This document shows, piece after piece, positions 8,055-47,542 of a DNA stretch of 56,832 bases; position 1 is the stretch's first letter; each line of letters starts with the position of its first letter. Made by a program: the position numbers and the translations under genes. Below the pieces are notes generated by a model that was given only the letters and a program-made list of their open reading frames with translations, had not been told where the DNA came from and did not search any database. Source of the stretch: a virus (Duplodnaviria > Caudoviricetes); the IMG/VR virus record IMGVR_UViG_3300020152_000004, positions 1 to 56,832 of that record. The stretch is one strand, 5' to 3'.

Positions 8055-8083
8055 TTGAGGCACCGCCCGCCCCGCGGTAGATT
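8055..8083 (+). promoter_or_regulatory. sigma70-type promoter for the lysis operon
   Basis: TTGAGG(8055-60)-17 nt-TAGATT(8078-83) in an intergenic gap. Confidence 0.6.
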
Positions 8084-8128
8084 ATTCCAACAGAACGCCG
8101 CGCCCTGGGCATTCGCCGGGCGGCGGCC

Positions 8129-8144
8129 GGCTCTTCCGTGGGTC
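8129..8144 (+). promoter_or_regulatory. Putative antiterminator hairpin, copy 1 (GGCTC-TTCCGT-GGGTC)
   Basis: 5-bp stem including two G-U pairs, UUCCGU loop; 3' arm overlaps the terminator 5' arm. Confidence 0.6.
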
Positions 8145-8180
8145 ACTCGTGCAATGCGCGCGAGTGGCCCTTTTTCGTTT
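8140..8180 (+). terminator. Intrinsic terminator in the lysis-operon leader
   Basis: 13-bp stem gggtcactcgtgc/gcgcgagtggccc followed by tttttcgttt, just upstream of the holin ATG. Confidence 0.8.
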
Positions 8181-8200
8181 ACGCTGCGACCGGACAGGCG

Positions 8201-8827
8201 ATGAGCCCTCAGCGACTCTTGCAGCAGGTACGATCGACGGCAACCGCCGAACCCGCGACCCTCGGCGCCGTCGTGACCATGGCGCTCGCGACCGTCGTCA
8301 ATGGTGTGAATGTATTCCTGTTCCTACTCCTGCTCGTCGCATTCATCGCGGACCAGATCTCTGGGATCCTGAAGGCAATCATCGTCACGCCGAAGGGAGC
8401 GAAGTGGTACGATGGCCAGGTCTTCATGCGGGGTGCCGCGAAGAAGGGTCTGATCGTTGTCGCCGTGCTCGTAGCTGCGTCGATGGACATGGCCCTGACG
8501 TACCTGCCGGCCTTCGGTGACCTCAGCCGGGATCTCTCGCCAGTAACGAAGATCGCCCTCGTCTACTTCCTCATCGGGCAATGGACCAGCGCGCTGCGCA
8601 ATGTCGCTGTGGTGAAGGACGCGCGCGCCGGCGTCGAGTTCATGATCCGTCGAATGGACGCGGCGAAACTCGGCCACGAGCCGCCCCTCCGACGCGACTA
8701 CGACGCCGCGGCGCTGAAAGAGGAGCTGACCCTCCCCACGAACGACGGCCGGGCATTCCGGGACGTCGCCGTTCACATCGATCGAAAGCTCGATCCTTCC
8801 GACCCTGAACCCGAGGTGAGTCCATGA
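8201..8827 (+). CDS. Holin (phage holin family 4-like)
   Basis: Multiple TM helices, D.ISGILKA and GAAKK motifs; first gene of the lysis cassette. Confidence 0.7.
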   Translation: MSPQRLLQQVRSTATAEPATLGAVVTMALATVVNGVNVFLFLLLLVAFIADQISGILKAIIVTPKGAKWYDGQVFMRGAAKKGLIVVAVLVAASMDMALTYLPAFGDLSRDLSPVTKIALVYFLIGQWTSALRNVAVVKDARAGVEFMIRRMDAAKLGHEPPLRRDYDAAALKEELTLPTNDGRAFRDVAVHIDRKLDPSDPEPEVSP

Positions 8828-9069
8828 AGACGGTCCTCTCCAAGTCGGCCGTGAGCAGCAAGACCGTGATCGTCAACGCAGTGGTGATCCTGCTGGCGTG
8901 CGTTACGGCGCTCACGGACGCGAACATCCCGTTCGTCTCCGAACAGCTCCAGAGTGAAACAGCGATCGCGATCCTCGCAGTCGTGAACGTCATCCTTCGC
9001 TTTTTCACGAAGCAGCCCGTAACGGTCACGGGCGGGGAGCCGGTACCTGTGGAGGATAGGCCGCTCTGA
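8824..9069 (+). CDS. Small two-TM holin/antiholin-like protein
   Basis: SKTVIVN...NVILRFFTKQPV pattern; precedes the endolysin. Confidence 0.6.
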   Translation: MKTVLSKSAVSSKTVIVNAVVILLACVTALTDANIPFVSEQLQSETAIAILAVVNVILRFFTKQPVTVTGGEPVPVEDRPL

Positions 9070-9785
9070 TGAGCGCCGGGATGATGCCGGCGGCTGCCGA
9101 ACCGCAGCCGTCGCGCAACCTCGATCTCCTCGCGCCAAAGGTGCGCGCTGCGGTGCAAGCAGCGATCGCGGAGTGCAACGCGCCCGGCGGGCCCGGGGAT
9201 GTCCTGCTCTACGAGGCGATGCGATCGGCCGAGCTGCAGGCGATCTACTACGCGCGCGGCCGCACCGTGAAGCCGCCCTATCAGACCGTCACGAACGCGA
9301 AGAGCAACCTGTACAGCTGGCACGGGTTCGGGCTCGCCGTCGACGTTGTGCACCGGATACTGCTCTGGTCGCCGCCTGCGGCTTGGTGGCATGCCGTCGC
9401 GAAGATCTTCAAGAAGCACGGACTCGACTGGGGCGGCGACTGGCATCAAGTCGATCTGCCGCATTTCCAGTGGGGCACGCTCCGGAAGTCGCCGAGCGAT
9501 CGCGCGCGTCAGCTGCTCGCCGACGGCGGGCTCGCTGCCGTGTGGAAAGAGGTCGGCGCCGACGGTCCGCCTGTACCCGCGGTCCTGTCCCCGCAACGCG
9601 CACGGATCCTCACGCTCGGACTCAAGGGCGACGACGTCGCGGAGCTGCAGCTGAAGCTCGGCGTACCGGTCACGCGCGTGTTCGACGCGGACACGGATGC
9701 GCGCGTGCGAGCCGTGCAGCGCCGCCACGGACTCGCCGTCGACGGCGACGTCGGTCCGAAGACCCGCGCCGTGCTCGGACTTTGA
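9069..9785 (+). CDS. Endolysin, M15 family (L-Ala-D-Glu peptidase-like) with C-terminal PG-binding domain
   Basis: R..ELQ..YYARGR, SWHGFGLAVD and DLPHFQ Zn motifs; C-terminal G.DV.ELQ..L...VQRRHGL.VDG.VGPKT. Confidence 0.9.
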   Translation: MSAGMMPAAAEPQPSRNLDLLAPKVRAAVQAAIAECNAPGGPGDVLLYEAMRSAELQAIYYARGRTVKPPYQTVTNAKSNLYSWHGFGLAVDVVHRILLWSPPAAWWHAVAKIFKKHGLDWGGDWHQVDLPHFQWGTLRKSPSDRARQLLADGGLAAVWKEVGADGPPVPAVLSPQRARILTLGLKGDDVAELQLKLGVPVTRVFDADTDARVRAVQRRHGLAVDGDVGPKTRAVLGL

Positions 9786-9793
9786 GGCTGCTG

Positions 9794-9880
9794 ATGCTCA
9801 TCGTCGAAATGGCCGTGCTATTGGCGATTTTGCTCTTTCTGGCTTGGCAAAGGCTGGCGGAGAAGGGAGCAGCATGGTGA
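9794..9880 (+). CDS. 28-aa single-TM peptide in the lysis cassette
   Basis: MLIVEMAVLLAILLFLAWQRLAEKGAAW fills the gap between the endolysin and spanin-like genes. Confidence 0.45.
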   Translation: MLIVEMAVLLAILLFLAWQRLAEKGAAW

Positions 9881-10605: not shown

Positions 10606-10608
10606 ATC

Positions 10609-12185: not shown

Positions 12186-12190
12186 GCTGA

Positions 12191-13860: not shown

Positions 13861-15859
13861 CGGATTTAAGATGATCAGGAAGGTACTGGCTGTGCGTGCG
13901 TTTGAGGTAGTCCAATCCTGCCGCACGATCAGCGGTAAACTGCAGCTTTTCCTCGAACATCTTCAAGCGCGCCTTACAGTCGTTGATGACCTCTGACCAT
14001 GATTTGACCCACACCGTCATCCGCAGCTGGGAGTTCTGGTAGAGGATACCGCGTGGCCGGTTGTCCTGCTGAATCTCACTACGTACGTCGGGATGGATGT
14101 CATTCGAGACAGCCCAGAACACCCACTTCGTTTCAAGATCCCGAAATCTCTCGTCGCGTTGAACCGCCAAGGCATAGCTCTTAATCTGTTGAGCCACATT
14201 CGGAGTGATTTTCTGCCTGGGTCGTTTTAGCTCGACAACCAAATGCTCTCGCTTGCTGGCATCCTGATGGTAGATGAGCCGTGACAACATCAAGTCGATG
14301 ATACCGTCGGATCCATCGCTGCGCACCACGGGAACATGGGCATCTGTTTTCTCGCCCTCGTCCTGAAGTGGGTCCTCTACTGGCCGCAGGTGCGTGGATC
14401 GATGCTGGAGAAGCACTTCATTCAATGACTCATCGTCGACAGTCAGATTGTACTCCTCTCCGAATATCCACGTCTCTCGCGCTAGGATCCGATGCAGTTC
14501 CTTACGTTCGAGTAGGGTTTTCTTTGAGACAGGATCGTAAAGCAGGATTTCTAGCCCGCGGATAAACTCCAACCGTTCCGCAACCATATTGGCGGCCTCA
14601 ATGACCGCCGAGAGTGATGTCCGTTCTAGAAGTCGGGCAAGCTCATTCTGTTTGTCCGAGGGCAAGGCCAAGACATCGCGGAAGATGCGCTGCAGCGCTT
14701 CTGGGTTCTCCTTAAGGGCGCCTTTAAGTAGTTCGAACGAAAACTTCTTGCTGGTGGGATCTGCCTCTGCGAACGAAGGCATATAGTTGTTGACGTTGAT
14801 CGCGAGAACGTCGAACATCTGCCGTTCGACCTGCTCGACCACGTCCCTCGGCTGGCCTTGATACGGGTATACCTTGTCTCGCTTCCATTCCTCCACGAGA
14901 TCCGCTCGTTGCTCTGCCGCGCGCGCTCTAAAATGATCGCGAAGCTGCTTTTTCGCGGCGGCAACAATGGGCTCAAGCACCGGATTCTCTGGTCCCAGTT
15001 CCAACAAGTTGGCTTCTTCGAGTTCCTTAATATAAGAGGTTCGCAAATAGCAAGTATACGAAAACCCCGGCGCATGAATCCGCGGCTGGAAAGAGAACAA
15101 AGAGAACCCATTCGCGTCACACAAATGCAACGATCTACTAAATTCGGTCTTCCACTCGACGATCGTTAGCACCATGTCGTGGATCCATGTGCCACCCGGA
15201 ACCTGTACGGAATCAAGCCTGTATTCTTGAACGTGCAGCTCAAGGTCTGCTGGATGCAGGCGGCTCTTGTGGTATACGACCGAGATGTCCGGGTAGTTGC
15301 GGAGATATAGTGCAAAGAGCTCCAGCAGTTCTTCGCGGGTCGATTGCTTCAAAAGGTGCGCAAGGTTGGGACGCACGCTGCCGATAGACACCGTGGTTCC
15401 TGTCTGGGTATCATCGCTCGGGATCGAATCGGAGATGTCGAATTGACGGATATCCTGCTTTGATCCCTTGATTCTGAACTCCTGCAGGCGACCAGGTTCC
15501 CCCGTGACGGTTCTCCACTCGACGTCCTCACCTAGTGCGTAGGCCCTTAACCTGCCTTTGCCTTCCTTCCCATGAATGGTTCGGCCGCGCGTGCGAGTTT
15601 TCTGACGGTTTCTCTTCCATGAACCGCCAATGCTCCCAAAGCCCGCCTCGGCGTCAGCTTCGGTCATCCCTGTACCGTTATCGGTGACCGTTATGCCGGC
15701 GATGCTCCCGTTCAACAGACTCTGGTCAAAATCGACCCGGATCAGCGTCGCATCAGCGTCGAGCGCATTCCAAACCAGTTCCGCCAAGGCGACAACGGGG
15801 CGGGCGTTCGTGAGCGCGTGAACGTGGTCGGATGCTACCTTCATTGTTACGCGCTTCAA
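13844..15859 (-). CDS. GHKL (HATPase_c/MORC-like) ATPase fused to a C-terminal PD-(D/E)xK nuclease; putative anti-phage moron
   Basis: ELVWNALDA, DNGTGM, GKEGKGR, GTTV GHKL motifs; WIFGEEY, IDLML, VVELKRP, QIKSY nuclease motifs; TTG start at 15859 after a GGAGGGAGG RBS; more AT-rich than flanks. Confidence 0.8.
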   Translation of the reverse strand: MKRVTMKVASDHVHALTNARPVVALAELVWNALDADATLIRVDFDQSLLNGSIAGITVTDNGTGMTEADAEAGFGSIGGSWKRNRQKTRTRGRTIHGKEGKGRLRAYALGEDVEWRTVTGEPGRLQEFRIKGSKQDIRQFDISDSIPSDDTQTGTTVSIGSVRPNLAHLLKQSTREELLELFALYLRNYPDISVVYHKSRLHPADLELHVQEYRLDSVQVPGGTWIHDMVLTIVEWKTEFSRSLHLCDANGFSLFSFQPRIHAPGFSYTCYLRTSYIKELEEANLLELGPENPVLEPIVAAAKKQLRDHFRARAAEQRADLVEEWKRDKVYPYQGQPRDVVEQVERQMFDVLAINVNNYMPSFAEADPTSKKFSFELLKGALKENPEALQRIFRDVLALPSDKQNELARLLERTSLSAVIEAANMVAERLEFIRGLEILLYDPVSKKTLLERKELHRILARETWIFGEEYNLTVDDESLNEVLLQHRSTHLRPVEDPLQDEGEKTDAHVPVVRSDGSDGIIDLMLSRLIYHQDASKREHLVVELKRPRQKITPNVAQQIKSYALAVQRDERFRDLETKWVFWAVSNDIHPDVRSEIQQDNRPRGILYQNSQLRMTVWVKSWSEVINDCKARLKMFEEKLQFTADRAAGLDYLKRTHSQYLPDHLKSATPPS

Positions 15860-16802: not shown

Positions 16803-16812
16803 TCAAACGCTC

Positions 16813-17372: not shown

Positions 17373-17379
17373 GCTTTCC

Positions 17380-17897: not shown

Positions 17898-17910
17898 GCG
17901 ACGCTCGAGA

Positions 17911-18390: not shown

Positions 18391-18397
18391 GAACCCC

Positions 18398-18426: not shown

Positions 18427-18482
18427 GTGCCACGTTATCCGTATCGAACGAAACGAAACACGAAGCAAGGTAAGACGCCCAG

Positions 18483-19887: not shown

Positions 19888-19897
19888 TATCGAGACC

Positions 19898-19970
19898 TGC
19901 GGGGAGCTGAACTGGTGGACAGCTGAGGCCCATACCCTCGGTACGGTGGGTTCGATTCCCACCCCCGCTA
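19898..19970 (+). tRNA. Atypical tRNA with CAT anticodon (fMet-like); possibly a pseudo-tRNA
   Basis: TGCGGGG/CCCCGCT acceptor with 1:72 mismatch; D arm GCTG/CAGC; anticodon arm TGAGG-CCCATAC-CCTCG; T arm GTGGG-TTCGATT-CCCAC; no encoded CCA. Confidence 0.7.
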
Positions 19971-20227: not shown

Positions 20228-20419
20228 ATGGCGGATGTCGCGTCGACCGCTGCTGACCTCTGCCCGAACTGCAAAGGGGAGGGGACCGTCACGCGCCAGG
20301 TGTCCGTCGATGACGGATACCATGAGGACTATCGGAACGAATTGATTCCGACGGTTGCGATGGACGTCGAGGTCCGCTGTGGCGAGTGCGGCGGCGAAGG
20401 CGTCCTGTCCGATGAGTAA
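20228..20419 (+). CDS. Small DnaJ-type Zn-finger protein
   Basis: CPNCKGEG and CGECGGEG (CxxCxGxG twice). Confidence 0.65.
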   Translation: MADVASTAADLCPNCKGEGTVTRQVSVDDGYHEDYRNELIPTVAMDVEVRCGECGGEGVLSDE

Positions 20420-36074: not shown

Positions 36075-36216
36075 CCTCCGCGAACCGCCGCCCTCTCCGG
36101 CGGAACAGAGACTCATGGTGCTCAGCGCAATCATCGTGATCGGAGCGCTCTCATTCGGCATCGGCTTGGTCTACCTGGCGAAATATCTCATCGCCCATCT
36201 CGTGTGGGTGCCCTGA
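36067..36216 (+). CDS. Small membrane protein
   Basis: 49 aa, one TM, overlap-coupled. Confidence 0.45.
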   Translation: MHDLREPPPSPAEQRLMVLSAIIVIGALSFGIGLVYLAKYLIAHLVWVP

Positions 36217-37021: not shown

Positions 37022-38040
37022 GTACAATGCGAGAGAAGCCGATGAACGAGACGGAATCCCCTGGATCGACACCGGACGCCACCCCGGAGCCGTGCGCTCG
37101 ATGCGGTAAGCCAGCGGAATCGCGCGACGACTACGGGATCTGCGACGCGTGCTGTGCGCTGGAAGTCGCTGCGATGACGGGCGGGTCGGACGCCACAGGG
37201 ATGCAGGATGCAGCGAAGGCGTATGACCCGAAGGCGGTAGAGTTGGTGGCTGCGCTGATCGGCGCGAGTATCGACTTAGGCGAGGCGACGACGGTAGCCG
37301 AAAACGACGCCTGCGACGCCTTGGTGAACGACGCCGAGTCCGCCCTGCTGGACTACATCGCACGGCTGGCCGCTCCGTCATCCTCCACACCCGCGCAGAT
37401 ACCAGCAGCCGAGCCGGACGGTATCTGCTTCGTGCTGGTGCGTGACGGTCATGTGCTGCTGGAGCAGTGCCCGCGAAAGCGCGTCGTGCTCGGCGTTGGC
37501 GAGTGGTTCGTGCCGGGCGGTAAGGTGGAGCCGGGAGAGACAGGCGACGAAGCCCTGCACCGCGAGATCATGGAGGAACTAGGCATCCGCATTATCGCGG
37601 GTCAGGCGCTCCCCCTCATCGAAGGCTCGGCGATCCCGCCGACCGAAAAGGGTGTGTTCATCATGCGCCCGTACGCGGTCACGGAATGGGATGGCGAGGT
37701 GCCCGCGCAGACGTATGACCATGACGGCGTACCGCTCCGCTGGACGCCTATCGCGGAGGCCCTGCAATCGCCCGTGCCGCAGGTCCGCGCAATGGTCGCA
37801 ATGGCCGCCGCCCTGCGCGCATCCACACCCTCACCAGCACCGGAGCAGGACGGGATGCCGGAAGCGTGGATGGTTCGCTACCTCGACGGTCATGAATGGC
37901 GGCGTGCTCGTTTCAACGACAGCGCTGTGCCGTGCTTTACGAGCGATGCGGATGATGCCCGAGCGATGGCGGCGGTCCTGCGAGAGGACGGCTACAAAGT
38001 CGAGGTGTGTTCTGTCCACCGCAGGGCGTCCGATGCTTAG
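37018..38040 (+). CDS. Mosaic protein with NUDIX hydrolase domain
   Basis: Nudix box PGGKVEPGETGDEALHREIMEELGI. Confidence 0.8.
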   Translation: MSTMREKPMNETESPGSTPDATPEPCARCGKPAESRDDYGICDACCALEVAAMTGGSDATGMQDAAKAYDPKAVELVAALIGASIDLGEATTVAENDACDALVNDAESALLDYIARLAAPSSSTPAQIPAAEPDGICFVLVRDGHVLLEQCPRKRVVLGVGEWFVPGGKVEPGETGDEALHREIMEELGIRIIAGQALPLIEGSAIPPTEKGVFIMRPYAVTEWDGEVPAQTYDHDGVPLRWTPIAEALQSPVPQVRAMVAMAAALRASTPSPAPEQDGMPEAWMVRYLDGHEWRRARFNDSAVPCFTSDADDARAMAAVLREDGYKVEVCSVHRRASDA

Positions 38041-38248
38041 GATCGAGCGCCTCATGGAGATGGCCAAGGTGGACGCGGCGAAGGAGGGCTTCGACCCGCG
38101 CGGCGGATACGTCACGATGTGGATCGTCGGCCACCGCAGTCCCTACGCAATGCCATTCGAGATATGGAACGAAGCCCAGACCGCTGGCTTCTACGCTGGA
38201 CAGATCGCGGCCCGCGCGCCGCACCTTCGGGAGGACGACAATGGGTAA
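38033..38248 (+). CDS. Hypothetical protein
   Basis: 71 aa, overlap-coupled. Confidence 0.5.
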   Translation: MLRIERLMEMAKVDAAKEGFDPRGGYVTMWIVGHRSPYAMPFEIWNEAQTAGFYAGQIAARAPHLREDDNG

Positions 38249-39689
38249 CCCGTTCGGGCCGGGATGGATCACGGAACCACTCAACGACGCCAATTGCCCG
38301 CACTGTGTTGCCGGATGCACATGCCTCCGTGTTTGGCCCGCCTCACCAGCAGTGCAGGTAGACGCAGCCACGACACTCGCGGAGCTGGATCACATTCTCG
38401 GCTCGGTGGACATACCGCACGCACGCAACGGCGTCATGGTGCCGATCATCGAGCGAGCAGAGCAGTTTCGGGACACGGTGCGCAGGCAGGATAGCATAAT
38501 TGAGGCGCTGAAGGCGGGCGCTCCCGTCATCAAGTGCTGCGAGCATTGCGAACTGTGCGCGGCCGAACGGGACGACCCGGACAATCCGTGGGAACCAGCT
38601 AAAGGGGGCGACGAGCCGGGGATGCTAAAGCACTCCGGGTCCGCAGAAGCGGTCCAGCTCTCGCCTGCCCCCGATCAGTTACGGAGCGCGCTGGAGAAGA
38701 TCGTCGGGCTGACGTTCGACTCGCCGCTCGATCCGCCGCCATACAACGATCGGTCCCACATGCACAACAAGATCGTGCTTGTGAATCGCGCCGCACGGCA
38801 GGCGCTCGACGCATGGGCGGCCATGCAGCCCGACGCCGAGCGGGTAGAAGCAGCCACGATTCCGGATACGACCCTCATGGACACGTATATCGGTCCGGTT
38901 CGGTTGCAGCCCGACGCCTCACAGGCAGCCGCGATTCAGGACGACATGCGGACGCTGCTGGAGCTGCTCGGGCTACCGACGCACGCGCGGGATAAATCGC
39001 CTCGGGAAGTCATGCAGGGCGAAATCATTCCTGCCGTCCGTGGACTCGTGCAGCCCGACGCCGAGCGGGGCACAGTGCAGGCTATGCCGATCATCGAGGT
39101 GCGGCAGATGGATTGGATACCGGGATTCGCCGCGTTCGTGGACGGCGCCGAAGGTCCGCAAGGCGAGGCGCAGGTCGTGCTCAACGTGGGCGCGCTGGTC
39201 GCAGCCGTGGACATGGAAGACATCGACGCATCGGAGGTGCCGTACTTCGTGGCCGAGAGCATCATGCACGAAGTCATGCACGTACTGGAAAAATGGGCGG
39301 GTGTCGAGTTCAGCGAGGATCGCATCGAAGCCCTCACGGATCGCTACCGTGCCGCCGCATCTGGCGCTCCTGAGAGTGTCGTAAAGGGAGAGGCAATCAG
39401 CGCACCGGCAGAGCGAGCAGCGAAAGCTTGGATAGCCGGCGTAGCGACGAGGACGAGCCAGCGTTATACGCTTGCCTGCAACCCTGCCGCATACGCCCGC
39501 GACGTTGCTGATCTCACTGCCCTGATCGCCCGCGAGTTCGGGGCCGCGCACACCGATGGAGTGAAAGAACGGGCAGAGCGGATCGCACGGGAGTTTTACT
39601 GCCACATGATCGTTGAGGCAGAGGTCGCTCGCCTCGCAGCACGGATCGCCCGCGAGTTCGGACCCGATGGGCAGGAGGATGCACGATGA
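38241..39689 (+). CDS. Mosaic hypothetical protein with HExxH motif
   Basis: GGGAGG RBS; modules separated by QPDA repeats; IMHEVMH; IAREF three times. Confidence 0.65.
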   Translation: MGNPFGPGWITEPLNDANCPHCVAGCTCLRVWPASPAVQVDAATTLAELDHILGSVDIPHARNGVMVPIIERAEQFRDTVRRQDSIIEALKAGAPVIKCCEHCELCAAERDDPDNPWEPAKGGDEPGMLKHSGSAEAVQLSPAPDQLRSALEKIVGLTFDSPLDPPPYNDRSHMHNKIVLVNRAARQALDAWAAMQPDAERVEAATIPDTTLMDTYIGPVRLQPDASQAAAIQDDMRTLLELLGLPTHARDKSPREVMQGEIIPAVRGLVQPDAERGTVQAMPIIEVRQMDWIPGFAAFVDGAEGPQGEAQVVLNVGALVAAVDMEDIDASEVPYFVAESIMHEVMHVLEKWAGVEFSEDRIEALTDRYRAAASGAPESVVKGEAISAPAERAAKAWIAGVATRTSQRYTLACNPAAYARDVADLTALIAREFGAAHTDGVKERAERIAREFYCHMIVEAEVARLAARIAREFGPDGQEDAR

Positions 39690-39958
39690 GCGACGAGCTG
39701 GTTACGGTCGAGGAGCTGCGCGAGTTCGCCGCCGAGATGACGCGGGCGTCCGAGCTGTACCGCACAAATTCCAAGTTCGCCCCGGATGAAGCACGGCGAG
39801 CGCCACGACCCGCAACCGTTCTGATCGTTGATCTTTCAATCTGGGTTGGTGTAGCTTTGAACATAGACGTCATGAGTTCCGGACCTTCCGCGGTCCCCTT
39901 CCTTGCGCCGAGATGCGCAACGGAAGCGGGACCGCGCGTCGTTGTAGGAGACAGGTAG
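39686..39958 (+). CDS. Hypothetical protein (3' half overlaps the late promoter/leader; possibly a remnant)
   Basis: GGAGGA RBS and ATGA overlap support the start; C-terminal half looks non-coding. Confidence 0.35.
   Translation: MSDELVTVEELREFAAEMTRASELYRTNSKFAPDEARRAPRPATVLIVDLSIWVGVALNIDVMSSGPSAVPFLAPRCATEAGPRVVVGDR
39828..39857 (+). promoter_or_regulatory. sigma70-type promoter for the Zn-ribbon regulator / packaging operon
   Basis: TTGATC(39828-33)-18 nt-TAGCTT(39852-57) in an AT-rich patch. Confidence 0.5.
39881..39936 (+). promoter_or_regulatory. UUCCGC-loop hairpin (copy 3) and competing 20-bp hairpin
   Basis: GGACC-TTCCGC-GGTCC (39881-96) overlaps cgcggtccc-cttcc-ttgcgc/gcgcaa-c-ggaag-c-gggaccgcg (39889-936); no U-tract; AGGAG RBS 10 nt downstream. 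Confidence 0.65.
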
Positions 39959-39959
39959 C

Positions 39960-40229
39960 ATGAGCCGACCACCACTGCGCGCATACCGCGGGAAGGTCTA
40001 CCGATGCGCGGATCCACTCTGCGGCCGCAAGCGGGAGCGTGATGCATTCGGCCAGTGGCGCATTTACAAATGCGACAACTGCGGGCTCGACATGTACGTG
40101 GAGGCTCGCGCGGACAAGACGGAAGTCGTGGGACTGACGCCCGAGCAGGCGACATACATCCGGCAGAACCTGGATGGCGCCGGGCCCGGTGAGGTTCTGT
40201 TCTTCCTGGGCGTCGCCGAGTCGCTATGA
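39960..40229 (+). CDS. Small C4 Zn-ribbon protein (Com-like; candidate late regulator)
   Basis: RCADPLCGR...YKCDNCG, basic N-terminus; directly downstream of the conserved leader element. Confidence 0.65.
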   Translation: MSRPPLRAYRGKVYRCADPLCGRKRERDAFGQWRIYKCDNCGLDMYVEARADKTEVVGLTPEQATYIRQNLDGAGPGEVLFFLGVAESL

Positions 40230-40237
40230 CGGCGAGA

Positions 40238-40432
40238 TCACCGCTTCATCTCGCGGGCGACGTCGCGCAGCGCGCGGAGAAGGAACGGAGGAGCTGCGCG
40301 GTGGTGCGGAGATCCCGCCGGCTGCTCCCATCGCCAGACCGTGTGCCTATTGACGTCCAGGGCCGACGCCAGCTCGTCCAGCGTCATGCGCAGCCGGCGC
40401 TCGCGGAAGGTTCGGATTTCGTCGGGCGTCAT
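40238..40432 (-). CDS. XRE-family HTH protein
   Basis: MTPDEIRTFRERRLRMTLDELASALDVNRHTVWRWE. Confidence 0.8.
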   Translation of the reverse strand: MTPDEIRTFRERRLRMTLDELASALDVNRHTVWRWEQPAGSPHHRAAPPFLLRALRDVAREMKR

Positions 40433-40520
40433 GACGAAACGCTATCCCTCGTGAAACTGGCGCGCACCGCTCAACGGGCGTACCGTGTGCCGTTGGCACA
40501 CTGGAAATGGAGCGCAGAGC

Positions 40521-40703
40521 ATGAGGGATCTTCACAGCCGGGCGGCGCAGCTGGTCAAGGACGCATTCGAGCGTTCACGCGAACGGGAGATCGAGATCCG
40601 CGCCGAGAGCTGGCCACAGGACCCGCCAGCCGATGCGAACGCGGACTCGCAGGCGTGGGCCTATGTGCTGGCCGTGCTCGAGGAGCGAAAACCACCGAAG
40701 TAG
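40521..40703 (+). CDS. Hypothetical protein
   Basis: GGAG RBS, 60 aa. Confidence 0.5.
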   Translation: MRDLHSRAAQLVKDAFERSREREIEIRAESWPQDPPADANADSQAWAYVLAVLEERKPPK

Positions 40704-40710
40704 GAATGCC

Positions 40711-42090
40711 ATGAGGATCATCAACGAAACCACGGAGCTGGTACCTGTCACGCAGCTCCGGCCGCACCCGAAGAACGCGCGCGCCGGCGACGTTGATGAA
40801 ATCCATTCGAGCATCCGGGACAATGGCTTCTACGGGTCGCTGGTCGTGCAGCGATCGACCGGGTACATCCTCGCAGGTAACCACCGCTTCCAAGGCGCGC
40901 TGCGCGCCGGCGCGCGCACGCTGCCGGTCACTTGGGTCGACGTTGACGACACCACGGCGCTCCGCATCCTGCTCGTCGACAACCGCACGAACGACCTCGC
41001 CGGGTACGATGATGTCGCGCTGACCAACCTGCTTGAGGAGATCCTCGAGGAGAGCGGCACCCTGGACGGGACCGGCTACGACCGTGACGCACTGGACGAG
41101 CTGCTCGCGCATGTCGCGGAGGAGGAAGCCCGCGACGAGGGCGACACGTTGATCGTCCTCCCCGAGGCGCCGAAGTCCCAGCGCGGGGAGGTGTATGAGC
41201 TCGGGCCGCACCGGCTGATGTGCGGCGACAGCACGGACCTCCGCGACGTGCAGCGGCTGATGGGCGGCGATCGCGCGCACCTCGTGAATACGGACCCGCC
41301 ATATGGTGTGTCGTACCAGGGCACGGGGTTCGACGTCATCCAGAATGACAACCTGCGCGGCGACGATCTGCTGAGCATCTTGATGCCGGCGCTGCAGCTC
41401 GCGGCCGAGTTCGCGGTGGAGAACGCGGCGTTCTACATCTGGCACGCCAGCTCGACGCGGAAAGACTTCGAGTGGGCCATGGACGCGGCCGGCCTCGAGG
41501 AGAAGCAGTACATCCTCTGGGCCAAGGACTCATTCGTCCTCGGGCACGCCGACTACCACTGGCAGCACGAGCCCTGCTTTTATGCCCGGAAGGTCGGCTG
41601 CACCCCACCGTTCTATGCCGACCGCACTCAGAGTACCGTGTGGCGGTTCGCCGCTCGGCGCGCATCCGGCGAACGGAGCGTCGCGCTCGCGAACGGGATC
41701 CGCATATCCAACGGCGCCGGGGCCGAGGTTTACGTTCAGCCGCAGGCGCCGAAGACGCGCCGCACGCGTCTCGTCCGCCTGCACGCCGGCGAATCAGTGC
41801 TGCTCGTCCCCGGACCGGGCGGTGTCACGGACCTCTGGGACGTGAAGCTGGACACCGATGCGTACCAGCATCCCACGCAGAAGCCTGTCGCGCTCGCGGT
41901 GAACGCGATTCAGAACAGTTCGCGCCCAGGCGACATCGTGCTCGACCTGTTCGGTGGTGGGGGATTCACGCTGCTCGGAGCGGAGGCCACAAAGCGCGTC
42001 GCGCGCGTAATGGAGCTGGACCCGCGCTACTGTGACGTCATCCGCCGTCGCTACGCCGAATTCGCGGGTCGGCCGGAGCTCGCGCCGTGA
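40711..42090 (+). CDS. ParB-like N-domain fused to a DNA N4/N6 methyltransferase
   Basis: PHPKNAR...AGNHR...DNR ParB motifs; TDPPYGV, HPTQKPV, VLDLFGGGG, ELDPRYCDVI. Confidence 0.9.
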   Translation: MRIINETTELVPVTQLRPHPKNARAGDVDEIHSSIRDNGFYGSLVVQRSTGYILAGNHRFQGALRAGARTLPVTWVDVDDTTALRILLVDNRTNDLAGYDDVALTNLLEEILEESGTLDGTGYDRDALDELLAHVAEEEARDEGDTLIVLPEAPKSQRGEVYELGPHRLMCGDSTDLRDVQRLMGGDRAHLVNTDPPYGVSYQGTGFDVIQNDNLRGDDLLSILMPALQLAAEFAVENAAFYIWHASSTRKDFEWAMDAAGLEEKQYILWAKDSFVLGHADYHWQHEPCFYARKVGCTPPFYADRTQSTVWRFAARRASGERSVALANGIRISNGAGAEVYVQPQAPKTRRTRLVRLHAGESVLLVPGPGGVTDLWDVKLDTDAYQHPTQKPVALAVNAIQNSSRPGDIVLDLFGGGGFTLLGAEATKRVARVMELDPRYCDVIRRRYAEFAGRPELAP

Positions 42091-42707
42091 AGAATCTCCG
42101 CTGCTCGGACTTCGGTGGCCGGCGGAAGTCGGGAGCTGCGTGCGGCCGTGCGCCTGGGTGGGGCACGGACAAGGACACGGGCCCATGCAAGGACCACGTG
42201 GCCATCGTGGCCGCTGCGGCCGAGACCGGCATCAAGGTCCGGAACCAGACCGCGTTCCTGGCAGCGATGCGGCGCACAGGCAACATCAGCGCGGCCGCGC
42301 GCGCGGCGAACGTCGACCGCTCGATGCATTACACGTGGCTCGAGCAGGACTTCAACTACCGAAAGTCATTCGAGGACGCCAAGGCGGAGTCGATCGAGGT
42401 CCTCGAGGCGGAAGCGCGGCGCCGCGCGATCGCCGGCATCAAGCGGCTGAAGTTCACACGCAATGGCAAGCCGATCATCGATCCGAAGACCGGCGAGCCC
42501 TATGTGGAGCACGCGTACAGCGACACCCTGCTGATCTTCCTGCTGAAGGCGGAGGCGCCGGAGAAGTACCGCGAGCGCCTGGACGTCAGCGGACCCGGGG
42601 GCGGTCCAATCGCGACGGTGGCGGAGCACAGTCTGAGCGGGAAGTCTCTCGCCGAGCTCGCGGCCATGCGCGCTACGCTGCTCGCACAGTCGGCCGGCAC
42701 CGAATGA
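42087..42707 (+). CDS. Terminase small subunit
   Basis: FL......GNISAAARAANV.RS..Y.W, LEAEARRRA, YSDTLLIFLLK...PEKYRE; N-terminal C..C..C..H Zn motif. Confidence 0.82.
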   Translation: MKNLRCSDFGGRRKSGAACGRAPGWGTDKDTGPCKDHVAIVAAAAETGIKVRNQTAFLAAMRRTGNISAAARAANVDRSMHYTWLEQDFNYRKSFEDAKAESIEVLEAEARRRAIAGIKRLKFTRNGKPIIDPKTGEPYVEHAYSDTLLIFLLKAEAPEKYRERLDVSGPGGGPIATVAEHSLSGKSLAELAAMRATLLAQSAGTE

Positions 42708-44515
42708 TGATGACGAACGACGAGGTGCGGCGGATCCTCACGCCCATGTCGCAGGACGAGCTGCTCAAGCTGATCGCGTCACCAGCGGACACCGGGCACA
42801 TCCCACCTGAAGTACTGCTCGGCTCCGACCTCGTCGCCGTGCCCGAGGCCGGGGAGGATGGCGTCCGTTGCCGTCTCATGCCGCGTACGACTGCGACCGA
42901 CCTGGTGCGCGTCGAGCGGGAGCTCGTCCGCATCGCGCCTGCGCCGGCGCAGGACGTCGAGTGGCACCTCTGCAAGCACGATCGCGCATACTTCATTGCA
43001 CGGTGGCTGGACATCGAGACGAAGTTCCCGATCGGTAAGGACCGCAGCACGCCGTTCCTGCCGTTCCTCTATCAGCTGCGCATCATCCGGCTCTACGACC
43101 GCGCACGCGCCGAGCAGCGCGGCATCTTCGAAGAGAAGTCGCGCCAGCTGGGACTCAGCTGGCTGTGGATGGCGCTCTTCCTCCACGGCCTGCTGTTCGA
43201 GGACCAGGCATCGTTCTTCGCGACATCCCGACGCCAGGACGAGGTGGATGACGGCGGCCGTGGCAGCACCACGAAAAGCATCTTCGGCCGGCTGCGGTTC
43301 ATGTACGAGCGGCTGCCTGCATTCCTGCGCCAGGACTCGGCCACTCACAAGGACGTCCTCACGTTCAAACTGCTGAGCGTGCTGCACACGACGTCTGGGT
43401 CGTACCTCTCGGGCGAGGCCGCGACGGCGAATATCGGCCGCGGCGGCAGCTTCACGGTCGGCCTCCTGGATGAGTTCGCGCACATCGAGCAATCCGAGTC
43501 CGCATGGGCATCCGCGGATGAGGCCATCCAATGCCCGATCGTGAGCAGTACTCCATTCGGCGAGGACAACAAGTTCGCGGATCTCCGGGACAAACTCGCG
43601 CGGCCGAAGAATGACAGCGAGCGGGAGGTGCGGAAGCGCTTCCTGGTCTCGCGCTCGCACTGGTCGGAGCATCCGTATTTCGCGCGCGGCATTGCGCGCG
43701 GCGAGGACGGCCGCCTGACGTCGCCGTGGTACCGGCGTGCGTGCGCAACGAAGACACCTGAGAAGGCGGCGCAGGAGTATGACATCGCCTACGCGGGTTC
43801 TTTGCCCGGACGGTTCTTCCCAGAGTTCAGCCGCGGCGTGCATGTCCCTCTCGAGGAGATCGCGCTCCACACCGGCTACTGGTTCTACCTGTCGGCCGAT
43901 CACGGCCTCTCGGACACGGAAGTATGGGGTCTGTGGCAGACGGACGGGTCCACGTTCGCCGAGCTGCTCGACGAATGGCACTCCGTTCCGGAAGGGTCAC
44001 ACCATGGCGTGGACCTGACGAGCCGCGAAGTCGCGGCAGGCATCGTGGAATGGCTGCGCGAGGAATGGGGCCTCCCGCTCGGCCGCATCGAGGGCATCAT
44101 CCCGGATCCGGCTGGCGGCGCGCGTGATGAAACGTCGGGACAGTCGCATCACGACCTGCTGAAGGCGACCTGGAGCAGGCTCGGACAGAAGATCCCGGCG
44201 TGGTGGCCCGCCAACAACTCGATCGTCGACGGTATCGAGTCCACACGTCTGCTGCTCGCCGGCACCTACAACGGGAAGACATTCCGGCTCCGCGTCTCCC
44301 CGCGCTGCACGCTCACGATCGACAGCCTGATCAACTATCGCAGGCGGACGCTGCGTGACGGCCGGGTGACGGATCAGGAGCACAAGGACTGGACGAACCA
44401 CGCGGCCGACATGTTCCGCTATTTCTGTCACACGATGTTCCCCGCGATCGGCGACGTCGCAATCGAAATGCTCGAGCCGCACGCGTACACCTCCGCAACG
44501 CAGGGAAGGATCTGA
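42704..44515 (+). CDS. Terminase large subunit
   Basis: KSRQLGLSW Walker A, VGLLDEFA Walker B, SSTPFG, nuclease SADHG and NHAADMFRY. Confidence 0.92.
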   Translation: MMMTNDEVRRILTPMSQDELLKLIASPADTGHIPPEVLLGSDLVAVPEAGEDGVRCRLMPRTTATDLVRVERELVRIAPAPAQDVEWHLCKHDRAYFIARWLDIETKFPIGKDRSTPFLPFLYQLRIIRLYDRARAEQRGIFEEKSRQLGLSWLWMALFLHGLLFEDQASFFATSRRQDEVDDGGRGSTTKSIFGRLRFMYERLPAFLRQDSATHKDVLTFKLLSVLHTTSGSYLSGEAATANIGRGGSFTVGLLDEFAHIEQSESAWASADEAIQCPIVSSTPFGEDNKFADLRDKLARPKNDSEREVRKRFLVSRSHWSEHPYFARGIARGEDGRLTSPWYRRACATKTPEKAAQEYDIAYAGSLPGRFFPEFSRGVHVPLEEIALHTGYWFYLSADHGLSDTEVWGLWQTDGSTFAELLDEWHSVPEGSHHGVDLTSREVAAGIVEWLREEWGLPLGRIEGIIPDPAGGARDETSGQSHHDLLKATWSRLGQKIPAWWPANNSIVDGIESTRLLLAGTYNGKTFRLRVSPRCTLTIDSLINYRRRTLRDGRVTDQEHKDWTNHAADMFRYFCHTMFPAIGDVAIEMLEPHAYTSATQGRI

Positions 44516-44518
44516 CCA

Positions 44519-46207
44519 ATGGGCACGTTTGCAACCTCTGTGATGGGATGGCTGTCGGCACTGGTCGATGAGGGGAAGCTGCTGCCCTACAAGGGCGAGT
44601 GGGTCCCCTCCGATCACCATGAACGGCTCCGACAGTACGAGATCTTCCGGGCGCTTACGGAGAACCGATTCGGCGCTCTGCTGCGAAGCAAGGAAACGGG
44701 GAAGAAGCTGCGCGGATACGGCGACTATGCGCTGATCGTCGACACGAGCCGCGACGCAGTGCTCGGGGACCGCGTTGAGATTGAGGTCCCCGGATCCACG
44801 GATGAGAAGAACGCCGGCGCCGTTGCACGCAAGGCGTTCCTGGACCGGTGGGCGCGGAACGAGCGCTGGGCGTCGAAGCTCTACCGAGCCGAGACCGACG
44901 CTGCGGCCGTGGGCGACTGCGTCTATGAGCTGCGGCCCGATGGTAGCCGCCTGCGCCTGCGCACGCACGACCCTGAGTCATTTTTCCCGGTGTGGGTCAA
45001 TGCGGAGGGCGACTTCGATGAGGCGTATCTCGCTTGGGAGGAGCTGAACACCGCGCAGTATCTGCCGGTGCGTCCGGGGAACATGACCGACATCCGGAAC
45101 CGGGACGGCGAGGTCATCGTGTACCGCCGACACTACCGGGTGATCTCGCGCGAGCGGGCTACCGAGCTCGGGATCACACTCGTCGGTGCGCGCAGCCGAA
45201 AGGAGATCTGCATCGTCTCGGCCGGATGGTACCGCATCGAGACGAAGGGCGGCGCCGCTGCAGTGGGTCTCGAGTACCTGCAGCTGCTCGGTTCAGAGCT
45301 GCTCGACGACGACACCCCGATCGTGAACCTGGACACGGGCTTCGACACTGTGCCGGTGTTCTATGTACCGAACCGCGAGGCGACGAATCAGCCATGGGGG
45401 CTGCCGGAGGGTGAGGCCGTGCTGCAACTCCTCCTGGATGCGTCACAGGACGCGACCGACCTGAAGGACAACACGTTTCACAACGCGTTCCCGATCCTGT
45501 ACGACGAGAATCCGCCGATCGCGACGTTGCCGCGGCCGGGCCAGCAGGGCGCAGCGACCCAATCCTCTGAGAAGTACCGGCCGGGCACGATCTACAACGG
45601 GCGGAAGCTCGGGACCGTCGACATGTCGAAGGGCAACACGATCCTGCTCGAGCACGAGAAGTGGCTGATCACGAAGGCCCTGTCGAACTCCCGCACGACG
45701 CTGATCGCGGCGGGGAAGCTCGAGGTGGGAGAAATTCCGTCGGGCATCGCGCTTCTGATCGCCATGCTGCCCCTGTTCTCGAAGACGCTGCCGAAGCGCA
45801 CGACGCGGCGGGACAAGCTCGGGATGCTGCTGAAGCATGTGATTCGCTGGCACCGCGAGTTCGGAAGGCCGTCCGACTTCTTCGGCGCGGCGCAGCCGGC
45901 GGACGGGCAGGGCAGTGCAGAGCCACAGTGGCCCGCGGGCATCTGGAACAGCGAGGAGGCATACCCGTCGTTCGGATCGATCATCCCGATCGATCGCACC
46001 CAGGTCTCCGAGATCGTCGCGAGCCTCCTGCACGCGGACGCCATCAGTGACGAGGTCGCAGTCGAGATGCTGCAGCAGGCGGGCTTCCCCATCCACGACG
46101 CAGCGGAGGAAGTGCAGCGGATCAAGGAGCGCCGCGCCCTCCCAGTGGGCGCTCCGGGCAGCGGGCTCGGGAATCAAGGCATCGCTATCCCGGGGATCGA
46201 CGCGTAG
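44519..46207 (+). CDS. Portal protein
   Basis: 562 aa directly after TerL; GD.VY, VPVFYVPN, SGIAL patterns of SPP1 gp6-like portals. Confidence 0.82.
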   Translation: MGTFATSVMGWLSALVDEGKLLPYKGEWVPSDHHERLRQYEIFRALTENRFGALLRSKETGKKLRGYGDYALIVDTSRDAVLGDRVEIEVPGSTDEKNAGAVARKAFLDRWARNERWASKLYRAETDAAAVGDCVYELRPDGSRLRLRTHDPESFFPVWVNAEGDFDEAYLAWEELNTAQYLPVRPGNMTDIRNRDGEVIVYRRHYRVISRERATELGITLVGARSRKEICIVSAGWYRIETKGGAAAVGLEYLQLLGSELLDDDTPIVNLDTGFDTVPVFYVPNREATNQPWGLPEGEAVLQLLLDASQDATDLKDNTFHNAFPILYDENPPIATLPRPGQQGAATQSSEKYRPGTIYNGRKLGTVDMSKGNTILLEHEKWLITKALSNSRTTLIAAGKLEVGEIPSGIALLIAMLPLFSKTLPKRTTRRDKLGMLLKHVIRWHREFGRPSDFFGAAQPADGQGSAEPQWPAGIWNSEEAYPSFGSIIPIDRTQVSEIVASLLHADAISDEVAVEMLQQAGFPIHDAAEEVQRIKERRALPVGAPGSGLGNQGIAIPGIDA

Positions 46208-46209
46208 GC

Positions 46210-46701
46210 ATGACTGACACGGAGACCGAAACGATCAAGGACTGGTCACCCGGCGTACTGCGTGACTTTGCCCATCTCTTCTGCGGCGAGCATCTGGGTG
46301 GCGGCATCGGACGACAGGTCTATGTTCTGCTGACCGATCCCACCAAGGTTGTGAAGATCGAGACCCAGGCGTACAGCTTCCAGAACGCACTCGAGTGGTC
46401 GACATGGAAGGAACTGTCGGAGACGAAACTGTCGCAGTATCTGGCGCCATGCCATTTCATCTCCCCGTGCGGCATGGCCCTGATCCAATCGCGGGTTCAG
46501 CCCCTGCCAACCGCGGCTGAGGAGAAGGCCGCGGGGACGAACGTGCTGAAGGACGTGAGGCTGCCGCGGTTCCTGACAGACTTCAAACGCGGCAATTACG
46601 GGATCCTCGACGGACGGGTCGTGGCATGTGACTACGGGACCCACCTGGCGATCGGCTACGGCGCCACGCGCCACCTGCGGAAGCCCGACTGGTGGGAATG
46701 A
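46210..46701 (+). CDS. Minimal protein-kinase-like protein
   Basis: HLGGGIGRQVY Gly loop, VVK lysine, NALE alphaC Glu, DFKRGN catalytic loop, DYG. Confidence 0.75.
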   Translation: MTDTETETIKDWSPGVLRDFAHLFCGEHLGGGIGRQVYVLLTDPTKVVKIETQAYSFQNALEWSTWKELSETKLSQYLAPCHFISPCGMALIQSRVQPLPTAAEEKAAGTNVLKDVRLPRFLTDFKRGNYGILDGRVVACDYGTHLAIGYGATRHLRKPDWWE

Positions 46702-47204
46702 CGCTGAAGGTGCGGCCGGAAGCTGCCGCCCAGATCGCGCAGCTCTGCGCAGATGCCCCCCAGCTGGAAACCGGCGGCGTCCTCGTCGGCTGGAGGTACA
46801 ATGAGGTCGCCGCGGAGGTGGTCCATGCGACCGGGCCGGGACCGAATGCCCTACTACAGGCCCGGGAGATGGAGTGGGACCCGAGCTACATCCAGGGCAT
46901 CATGGACGGAATCCAGCTCACCCGGGGGGGCTTTGGCATCATCGGGCGCTGGCACAAACACGCCGCTCCCGTCATACTTGCGAGTCAGCAGGATCGGCAC
47001 GGCGCCGAATGGTTCCGGATGGCGATCGCACCGGAAGACGCCACGGTGGAGCTGATCGTCGGGACCGGCGAAAATGACATGCCGCTCGCCTACGGTGCAT
47101 ATCTATGTACGTGCGACGGACTGCAGCGAATCGAGTGCGAGACGGACGCCACTGATGATGAAGAGCTTTCCCCCCGCCAACTGGCGCCAGCAGATACGGC
47201 GTAA
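46698..47204 (+). CDS. JAB/Mov34/MPN+ (JAMM) metalloprotease
   Basis: ETGGVLVG...ATGPG...WHKH-x7-SQQD gives a complete E/HxH-x7-SxxD motif; ATGA-coupled to the kinase. Confidence 0.85.
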   Translation: MTLKVRPEAAAQIAQLCADAPQLETGGVLVGWRYNEVAAEVVHATGPGPNALLQAREMEWDPSYIQGIMDGIQLTRGGFGIIGRWHKHAAPVILASQQDRHGAEWFRMAIAPEDATVELIVGTGENDMPLAYGAYLCTCDGLQRIECETDATDDEELSPRQLAPADTA

Positions 47205-47415
47205 CCTGCCGTTCCCGCCGGGACGCGGAGACGACGAGTTCGAAGCCATCATCACGAAGTTCCAGCAGGTTTATCAGCTCAATCTTGCCACGGGTGAAGT
47301 GTTCGTCCGGACCGGTGCGCACACATGGGATCAGCCCGCGTGGCTGGAGCTGCCGGACGTCGTGCGCGCCCGTATCCACGAGGCACTCAAAAACAGAGAT
47401 ACGTTGACGCAGTAA
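47155..47415 (+). CDS. Hypothetical protein
   Basis: 86 aa, last gene before the capsid-operon promoter. Confidence 0.5.
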   Translation: MMKSFPPANWRQQIRRNLPFPPGRGDDEFEAIITKFQQVYQLNLATGEVFVRTGAHTWDQPAWLELPDVVRARIHEALKNRDTLTQ

Positions 47416-47433
47416 CTCTGACGTTTATACATT
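47404..47433 (+). promoter_or_regulatory. sigma70-type promoter for the capsid operon
   Basis: TTGACG(47404-09)-18 nt-TACATT(47428-33). Confidence 0.7.
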
Positions 47434-47478
47434 CAGATCGTTCGCCATAGAGCAAAGCGCTCGAACCGGCAAGTCGTA

Positions 47479-47496
47479 TCGACCTTCCGCGGTCGG
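47479..47496 (+). promoter_or_regulatory. Putative antiterminator hairpin, copy 2 (TCGACC-TTCCGC-GGTCGG)
   Basis: 6-bp stem with UUCCGC loop overlapping the terminator 5' arm. Confidence 0.65.
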
Positions 47497-47542
47497 ACCC
47501 ACCTCGAGAAATCGGGGAACGGGCCCGGCCGCTTTTTTGTTT
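47489..47542 (+). terminator. Intrinsic terminator in the capsid-operon leader
   Basis: gcggtcggaccc...cctcga-GAAA-tcgggg...gggcccggccgc followed by ttttttgttt. Confidence 0.8.

Follow-up and report, generated by a model that had tools for sequence, protein, structure and literature searches.

Overlapping hairpins in three late-operon leaders of a soil siphovirus: a candidate phage-specific antitermination switch

The window analyzed here, a stretch of DNA of 56,832 bp that makes up IMG/VR record IMGVR_UViG_3300020152_000004, is a complete soil siphovirus genome with direct terminal repeats, an estimated completeness of 100% and a GC content of 64.6%. Three sites on its + strand, here called units 1, 2, and 3, each contain a promoter-like sequence followed by a small hairpin whose 3′ arm is also the base of a much stronger hairpin. 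We tentatively interpret these sites, at what we judge to be close to an even chance, as late-operon leaders that would carry a local, factor-dependent antitermination switch. The interpretation derives from a comparison of three genomes, namely, the window and two relatives (L009 and L003, the latter being part of record G001), which together contain nine units.

Small and large hairpins in three late leaders

The units of the window consist of the following features.

8055 to 8083 (+), unit 1 promoter-like site: TTGAGG-17-TAGATT, between the tailspike gene (5880 to 8033) and the holin gene (8201 to 8827); score in a generic scan below threshold
8129 to 8144 (+), unit 1 small hairpin: GGCTC-TTCCGT-GGGTC, a weak copy with two G-U pairs
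8140 to 8180 (+), unit 1 predicted intrinsic terminator: 13-bp stem (8140 to 8170) followed by TTTTTCGTTT
39828 to 39857 (+), unit 2 promoter-like site: TTGATC-18-TAGCTT, where the packaging/late block begins
39881 to 39896 (+), unit 2 small hairpin: GGACC-TTCCGC-GGTCC
39890 to 39936 (+), unit 2 large hairpin: approximately 19 to 20 bp, interrupted by two small internal loops and lacking a U tract, ending 23 nt before the ATG at 39960
47404 to 47433 (+), unit 3 promoter: TTGACG-18-TACATT, with the −35 element overlapping the end of the upstream gene
47479 to 47496 (+), unit 3 small hairpin: TCGACC-TTCCGC-GGTCGG
47489 to 47542 (+), unit 3 predicted intrinsic terminator: composite stem (47489 to 47532) with a GAAA apex, followed by TTTTTTGTTT, before the scaffold-like, decoration, and major capsid genes

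The large hairpins dominated the minimum-energy folds of leaders 1, 2, and 3 (−50.3, −45.0, and −43.3 kcal/mol, with z scores of −2.9, −3.4, and −2.6 relative to shuffled sequences). Counts of T in the 10 nt after the large stem were 8 for unit 1, 9 for unit 3, and 4 for unit 2, in agreement with an original prediction, made from this sequence, of U-tailed hairpins at 8140 to 8180 and 47489 to 47542 and of none at unit 2. Each small hairpin of the window was able to form alone, with energies of approximately −8 to −9 kcal/mol for pieces of 24 to 26 nt, and forcing the small hairpin of unit 1 in its leader cost 9.3 kcal/mol.

All of the promoter and leader-hairpin sequences in the original prediction were found where it had placed them, including the exact identity of the last two copies over 14 nt. 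The genome has exactly two copies of this 14-mer, GACCTTCCGCGGTC, located on the + strand at 39882 and 47481. The further claim that all three copies have the same loop held as far as the 9-mer CTTCCGYGG, which is common to units 1, 2, and 3 and whose + strand occurrences are these three sites only (five matches on both strands versus 2.1 expected); the copy in unit 1 was a weak one. A TTCCGY loop with a stem of at least 5 bp was formed at 7 of the 105 occurrences of this loop in the genome, and TTCCGC was the hexaloop most often enclosed by such stems (6 of 77 versus a base rate of 0.9%). Four TTCCGC hairpins lie outside the leaders, at 31645 on the + strand and at 36094, 14673, and 11885 on the − strand. 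These were set aside because they were absent from the local minimum-energy folds; their surroundings were not unusually structured.

The promoters had all been described as sigma70-like. A generic sigma70 scan was passed by the 47404 promoter alone, with 9 of 12 matches, the sites at 8055 and 39828 scoring 8 of 12 and falling below threshold. The pattern TTGA-N19-20-TAnnTT, which was derived post hoc from the sites themselves, matched these three places and no other in the window, with 0.26 matches expected and none of 100 shuffles reaching three. When the same pattern was applied to the three genomes, 9 of the 12 matches were the units.

Searches of Rfam over the whole window yielded no matches at gathering thresholds, and permissive searches of the three leaders gave best scores of 9 to 16 bits versus gathering scores of 40 to 83. 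The shared element amounts to 16 nt and five pairs and is allele specific and, hence, contains too little information for database searches.

The gene layout, based on PHROG and Pfam scans, runs on the + strand. An early/middle block encodes an SbcCD-like nuclease, several DNA methyltransferases, a DnaD-like protein, RusA, and a NUDIX protein. A gene for a 560-amino-acid (aa) protein of no known kind (38007 to 39689), without a counterpart in the two relatives, precedes unit 2, which is followed by genes for an 89-aa protein (39960 to 40229) and a ParB-methyltransferase. The large terminase (TerL; 42032 to 44515), the portal, and three small proteins then lead to unit 3, after which come a 229-aa scaffold-like protein without annotation, a decoration protein, the major capsid protein, the tail genes, and the tailspike, with the tape-measure gene spanning the record ends. 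Unit 1 follows the tailspike and precedes the holin and endolysin (9069 to 9785) genes, the endolysin having no more than weak matches beyond the phage contig. This gene order indicates that the three units stand before the packaging, head/tail, and lysis modules.

Leaders of two related phages

Relative L009 is part of the 57.5-kb contig G002:C228 from a gammaproteobacterial bin, with TerL and portal proteins 66% and 71% identical to those of the window; for L003, from a 59-kb IMG/VR provirus record (G001), the corresponding identities were 55% and 53%. No close relative was found among isolate phages, a megablast search with 39000 to 48500 returning nothing and a tblastn search with TerL returning only identities of up to approximately 30%. 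Scans for the portal in IMG/VR, metagenome contigs, and 66 genomes of the order of G002 detected no further relative. Alignment of capsid proteins added only two distant relatives, L029 and L030 (27 to 29% identity), of which L029 is AT rich, not comparable, and was dropped; L010, from a TerL scan of genome contigs, is a 3-kb fragment and was too short for use.

Both relatives contain three units, with a small-hairpin sequence particular to each genome, as follows.

L009 unit 2 small hairpin: GGGTC-CCACGC-GGCCC
L009 unit 3 small hairpin: CGGTC-CCACGA-GGCCG
G001 unit 2 small hairpin: AGCC-ATGAC-GGCT
G001 unit 3 small hairpin: GGGC-AGGAC-GCCC
G001 third unit (unit 1), at 31937, small hairpin: GGGC-AGGAC-GCCC, as in unit 3

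Unit 3 is located in both relatives between a homologue of the 113-aa gene upstream of unit 3 in the window and the scaffold-like gene. TTGACG is located right where the upstream gene ends, a TAnnTT element follows 17 to 18 nt further on, and a U-tailed terminator starts 52 to 56 nt beyond that element; the apex of the window terminator, CGAGAAATCGG, is kept in L009. At unit 2, a promoter of the same type is located directly before a small cysteine-rich gene preceding the terminase, and the −35 element of L009 is TTGATC, as in the window. The third copy of L009 is found after a tailspike-like gene, behind TGGACC-18-TAGATT and before a lipoprotein-like open reading frame (ORF), and is the counterpart of unit 1 of the window. 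In G001, a compensatory change in the stem distinguishes the terminator of the unit at 31937 from that of unit 3.

The loop had been expected to be conserved in homologous leaders. This was contradicted by the relatives, which have CCACG(C/A) and A(G/U)GAC instead, and, on the sequences compared, the TTCCGY loop is the allele of one phage and not a family signature. Loops that are alike within a genome and different between genomes are what a phage-specific RNA-binding factor predicts. Of the RNA switch originally proposed, whose observational basis gained considerably from this comparison, the architecture was kept in both relatives and the loop as its signature was not.

The L009 element GGTCCCACGnGGCC had three exact matches in the whole 2.9-Mb bin, all on the phage contig and all corresponding to the L009 leaders; one-mismatch matches elsewhere in the bin numbered five, versus four for a backwards control. 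An exact scan of IMG/VR with the 14-mer of the window found 110 stretches, and none of the 80 listed, which come from different contigs, had two distant copies. One unrelated IMG/VR contig, L035, contains the 14-mer twice within an 18-nt tandem repeat (4839 to 4870, − strand), with no promoter or terminator in its context.

Several additional sequence blocks were observed in the leaders. Two of the three L009 leaders (L009 9469 to 9482 and L013 1477 to 1490) have AGAGACAGTC(A/T)GA at the predicted transcription start, and similar TAGAC/GAGAC blocks occur at the starts of unit 2 of the window and unit 3 of L009; these shared blocks might be start-site or pause elements. Unit 3 of G001 contains ACCTTCCACGG (L003 14802 to 14812), which is the window motif with 1 mismatch in 11, directly past the −10 element and inside a duplicated ACCTTCC, and which may be a relic of another allele or due to chance. 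All three G001 leaders have a CCGAA-containing block 7 to 10 nt upstream of the small hairpin (L003 8121 to 8131 and 14832 to 14842; L025 approximately 1560 to 1570). Downstream of the unit 3 terminator of the window, in the 5′ untranslated region of the scaffold-like gene, there is a second small hairpin, CGCCGA-GCGAAA-TCGGCG (47551 to 47568, + strand), which is kept in L009 (approximately 15405 to 15421) along with a CGACGTAAA block. A terminator-like site without a copy of the small hairpin follows the capsid block of the window (50828 to 50854, + strand; GGGGGGGCGAGCCCCC plus TTTTCACTT), and G001 likewise has hairpins after its capsid genes.

Conservation of the overlap and covariation of the stems

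The 3′ arm of the small hairpin overlapped the base of the big hairpin in nine of nine units, so that the mutual exclusion of small and large hairpins, predicted for the three late leaders of the window, was borne out by the folds and extended to the relatives. Over the nine units, the small hairpin began 20 to 46 nt past the −10 element, and forcing it cost 5.5 to 13.8 kcal/mol and unpaired the basal pairs of the big stem beside the T-rich tail.

Unguided searches were made for the longest blocks with at most one mismatch among the leaders of one genome. For units 2 and 3 of the window, the longest shared block was the small hairpin itself (15 nt, 1 mismatch), and all three pairs of L009 leaders shared a block of 14 to 16 nt at the small hairpin; unit 1 of the window had just the 9-mer in common with units 2 and 3. 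Units 1 and 3 of G001 had the hairpin plus the terminator in common, over at least 31 nt. Such an extended likeness would be expected of a duplicated cassette and provides support for an explanation without any dedicated factor, in which the terminators are leaky or the hairpins stabilize or process mRNA, the small hairpins tune folding or arise by chance, and their identity is due to cassette duplication or gene conversion. This explanation also draws on the frequency of small competing hairpins in GC-rich RNA and on the large hairpin of unit 2, which is no classical terminator. In the window and L009, however, identity was limited to the small hairpin (14 to 16 nt) and did not extend to its flanks or to the remainder of the terminators, unlike the outcome of cassette duplication. 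Moreover, three exact L009 copies occur within 57 kb with no other in 2.9 Mb, and a terminator placed after a conserved promoter needs a way round. We consider an explanation without a factor to be distinctly improbable.

An unguided MAFFT alignment of the unit 2 leaders of the window and L009 was colinear and placed the small hairpins in register. Within them, the inner pairs and the final three loop letters were kept, one pair changed from A-T to G-C, and one changed from C-G to T-G. When the nine hairpins were aligned, 92.5% of cells paired and four of the five pairs exhibited double changes, in line with the covariation that had been expected of homologous leaders, with a covariation score of 0.65 versus 0.27 in shuffles (none of 500 reaching the observed value) and with pairing in 21 to 56% of cells for slid controls; these statistics are biased upward because the hairpins were chosen as hairpins.

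The pattern of changes also bears on whether the element could be a double-stranded DNA operator, that is, an inverted repeat with a 5- to 6-bp spacer at which a dimeric regulator of the phage would block or release the late promoters. The GACC-N6-GGTC type of symmetry, the location downstream of promoters, and the allele specificity would suit an operator. Its half-sites, however, change by compensatory pairs instead of being conserved, the nonsymmetric loop is the best-conserved part, and nine of nine copies are on the transcribed strand at the base of a terminator. An operator is, in our estimation, a most improbable explanation.

A terminator that follows a conserved promoter, a genome-specific hairpin at the base of that terminator, and covarying stems around a kept asymmetric loop are best explained by a phage-specific trans-acting factor.

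Proposed mechanism of the switch

In the units to which the proposed mechanism applies, a sigma70-type promoter is followed, 20 to 46 nt after the −10 element, by a 4- to 6-bp hairpin with a phage-specific loop of 5 to 6 nt. The 3′ arm of this hairpin, together with part of its loop, supplies the basal section of the 5′ arm of a much stronger hairpin, which at units 1 and 3 is a predicted U-tailed intrinsic terminator. By default, the big hairpin would win and transcripts would end approximately 90 to 105 nt from the start, holding down the lysis and head/tail genes. A phage-encoded factor would then recognize the small hairpin on the nascent RNA by its loop and upper stem and hold it in place, the terminator would lose four to nine basal pairs beside the U tract, and RNA polymerase would read through.

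A hairpin of 4 to 6 bp with a 5- to 6-nt loop, identical across the sites of a single phage and different from phage to phage, could also belong to a processive system of the boxB/N type, in which the hairpin loads a phage protein on the polymerase, which then ignores adjacent and later terminators, and in which it would be incidental, or an added benefit, that hairpin and terminator overlap. Identity within one phage and difference between phages are the hallmark of lambdoid nut sites. The terminator at 50828 to 50844 after the capsid block, lacking a copy of the hairpin, would need to be passed, and a processive reading fits nearly as well as one modeled on the ribonucleic antiterminator (RAT) and ANTAR systems. 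A processive system needs no copy per terminator, however, and the terminator-base overlap was kept in nine of nine units even though the distance from the promoter ranged from 20 to 46 nt. The boxA core GCTCTT[TA]A was found in none of the nine leaders, and no N-like protein was detected by PHROG searches of approximately 70 ORFs or among the ORFs scanned in Pfam. As each U-tailed terminator has its own copy, fixed at the base while the promoter distance varies, local action is favored over an N-like one, which we regard as unlikely while giving it appreciable weight.

The general layout of a promoter, a leader of approximately 100 nt, and an intrinsic terminator before late genes is that of lambdoid pR′-tR′ units. 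Antitermination by a Q-like or other protein-only factor, or activation of the promoters, would accordingly leave the small hairpins without a role. Q-like factors are still turning up in distant elements, as reported in a preprint for BrrG of BaGTA. Short A-G-A-C-rich blocks at the predicted starts of several units are compatible with such a factor, as is a 63-aa protein with two CxxCxGxG motifs (20228 to 20419, + strand), which had weak matches to PHROG 127 and PHROG 6060, "anti-termination protein Q-like" (E values of 3e-5 and 6e-4). This protein covered the zinc-finger part of the PHROG 127 profile only, had a match to the Pfam family DnaJ_CXXCXGXG below cutoff, and has no counterpart in the two relatives. 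The Q families PF06530 and PF03589 were detected in none of the three genomes by six-frame searches that did detect the positive controls, and the earlier statement that no Q gene is recognizable was thereby upheld. The promoter spacers contained no shared block; what the leaders have in common is the transcribed hairpin, which is variable in position relative to the promoter and fixed relative to the terminator, and a DNA site would leave the covariation of the stems unexplained. A protein-only mechanism appears to us very unlikely.

A candidate trans-acting factor

Since G001 has only the structural module in common with the window, that module is where any conserved factor would need to be encoded. 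In all three phages, unit 2 is followed immediately by a gene whose small product has a CX4C...CX2-5C spacing. In the window, this candidate is the following.

39960 to 40229 (+), 89-aa zinc-ribbon protein with a basic N terminus: first gene after unit 2

It is a speculative suggestion, made from gene position, that this zinc-ribbon protein is the trans-acting factor. It is equally speculative that the big hairpin of unit 2, having no U tract, leaks and so provides a basal level of the protein, which would then exert positive feedback on all three units. T-rich tails were weakest at unit 2 in the window and L009 (4 T in 10 nt versus 5 to 9 at the other units of those phages); unit 2 of G001 has a run of five T, which does not fit a leaky unit 2.

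A profile built from the window and L009 proteins and searched against 1.84 billion representatives recovered three further small proteins with the motifs CPDPxC, CxCG, and VVGLxPxEA in common, two of which have strongly basic, arginine/lysine-rich N termini. A fourth match, to a 2,984-aa protein, was rejected as probably spurious. The 89-aa protein belonged to no Pfam or PHROG family, a word-indexed protein search returned only the protein itself, and a PDB profile search gave nothing credible; neither this protein nor the 113-aa protein upstream of unit 3 had a usable match in an atlas search. A first AlphaFold 2 model of the 89-aa protein was poor (pLDDT of 59), and a second, made with five sequences, had a pLDDT of 74. 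Among known families, CAT_RBD (PF03123) was absent from all three genomes, its positive control being detected in four. ANTAR (PF03861) was also not detected in the three genomes, in a search in which the control was silent too, and was absent from the 37 ORFs scanned in Pfam.

The most specific form of the proposal is that a zinc-ribbon protein encoded behind a leaky unit 2 binds an allele-specific hairpin of 14 to 16 nt and blocks the terminator bases at every late operon, thereby combining alleles of the N/boxB kind with a mechanism of the RAT kind in a positive-feedback timer for packaging, head/tail, and lysis functions. We think it unlikely that this model is correct as a whole.

Several observations weigh against the local, factor-dependent switch or its proposed factor. 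Two of the nine small-hairpin copies are weak. That of unit 1 in the window matches the 14-mer at 9 of 14 positions, differing at the other 5, and when folded alone prefers another register with the loop UCUUCC; that of unit 2 in G001 resembles the other G001 units in shape and in the loop A-N-GAC only. The nine hairpins, from three genomes, were picked by eye. The bare small hairpins are weak (−3 to −7 kcal/mol), and hairpins of such weakness are easily found in sequence of 65% GC. As the unit 2 big hairpins have poor U tracts in the window and L009, preventing termination cannot be the role of the small hairpins there in any simple form. An ORF spanning the promoter and hairpins of unit 2 (39686 to 39958) has coding-type GC content at third codon positions (GC3; 0.8 to 0.9) in its first approximately 120 nt only. 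The zinc-ribbon proteins of the three phages are 20 to 26% identical in a MAFFT alignment, without significance by BLAST, and Foldseek with the model of pLDDT 74 found no PDB match at an E value of ≤0.001 (best E value, 0.37). No known RNA-binding or antiterminator domain was found by Pfam and PHROG scans of the window ORFs and domain searches. Finally, the sequencing runs yielded no RNA ends, the RNA run having provided two small intragenic contigs.

Other features of the genome

The ORF at 39686 to 39958 (+ strand) begins with an ATG that overlaps the stop codon of the 560-aa gene and has its own stop 1 nt short of the start codon at 39960; if read-through transcripts were translated, the hairpins of unit 2 could be melted. 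Another ORF, of 162 aa (40226 to 40714, + strand), has a GC3 of 0.61 and a junk-like, arginine-rich translation and is probably not a real gene, judging from its composition. No gene was assigned to 40230 to 40630 (+ strand). The large-terminase ORF (42032 to 44515, + strand) encodes 827 aa, while the relatives have a separate ORF of approximately 200 aa followed by a terminase of approximately 600 aa, and the window gene may be a fusion or have a misjoined start. A tRNA-Met gene with the anticodon CAT is located in the early region (19898 to 19970, + strand). No sequence variation was detected in the sequencing data, which comprised the probable source run, a run with identical low-coverage contigs, and the RNA run.

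Comparison with known systems

To our knowledge, late-gene control is understood in few phage groups only and there involves Q, sigma factors, or activators. In this setting the switch, if true, would add a compact way for phages to time lysis and virion production, built from a 16-nt RNA hairpin, a terminator, and one small protein, used three times in each genome, with at least three alleles distinct from one another. Such alleles would amount to orthogonal RNA-protein pairs already available for controlling termination synthetically, and multicopy, genome-specific leader hairpins could serve as a search signature in uncultivated phages. No description of such a switch in phages was found in the full-text literature, an absence that is weak evidence given the thin coverage of subscription journals.

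The small zinc-finger protein Com of phage Mu binds an mRNA leader, changes which hairpin forms, and thereby activates translation of mom. A small phage zinc-finger protein and a choice between leader hairpins are features in common with the present candidate, which differs in that read-through and not translation would be controlled; no similarity in sequence or fold was detected.

The nearest systems found in the literature are Q-like or processive, namely, BrrG of BaGTA (a preprint), the Stx pR′ small RNA, Q-lambda structures, AlpA, and conAn. Lambda Q at pR′-tR′ (6S RNA), BrrG, and AlpA share with the units a promoter, an intrinsic terminator within approximately 100 nt, and a position before late, lysis, or structural genes, and the predicted default product is a short terminated RNA. 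This layout, with a stem and a U tract, is found at units 1 and 3, unit 2 lacking the U tract. Unlike the lambda arrangement, which has one promoter-terminator unit, that of the present phages has three; no Q-family domain was found, and the conserved element is an RNA hairpin at the terminator, with none inside the promoters.

Lambdoid N/nut systems resemble the units in having a short hairpin in the nascent leader that is nearly identical within one phage and different in related phages, which implies a cognate phage protein. N acts processively. In the present phages, by contrast, the hairpin overlaps the terminator base in all units with one copy per terminator, no boxA core was found, the genes concerned are late and not early, and no N-like protein was recognized among the ORFs scanned; the zinc-ribbon family has a basic N terminus but is not N-like.

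ANTAR targets consist of a tandem pair of hexaloop hairpins in which loop positions 1 and 4 are A and G, respectively. The units have a single hairpin with the loops TTCCGC/T, CCACGC/A, or AGGAC/ATGAC, so the original remark that the window loop departs from the ANTAR consensus stands. No CAT_RBD domain was found in the three genomes, and the setting, late phage operons with three copies, also differs from that of the BglG/SacY/LicT-RAT and ANTAR (EutV, AmiR, and NasR) systems. In those systems, the small hairpin is stabilized by a protein. The likeness is in the arrangement of the RNA, since there, too, the 3′ part of a small hairpin is the 5′ arm of an intrinsic terminator and the two structures are mutually exclusive. 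The arrangement in these three genomes suggests a phage-specific variant of protein-dependent antitermination.

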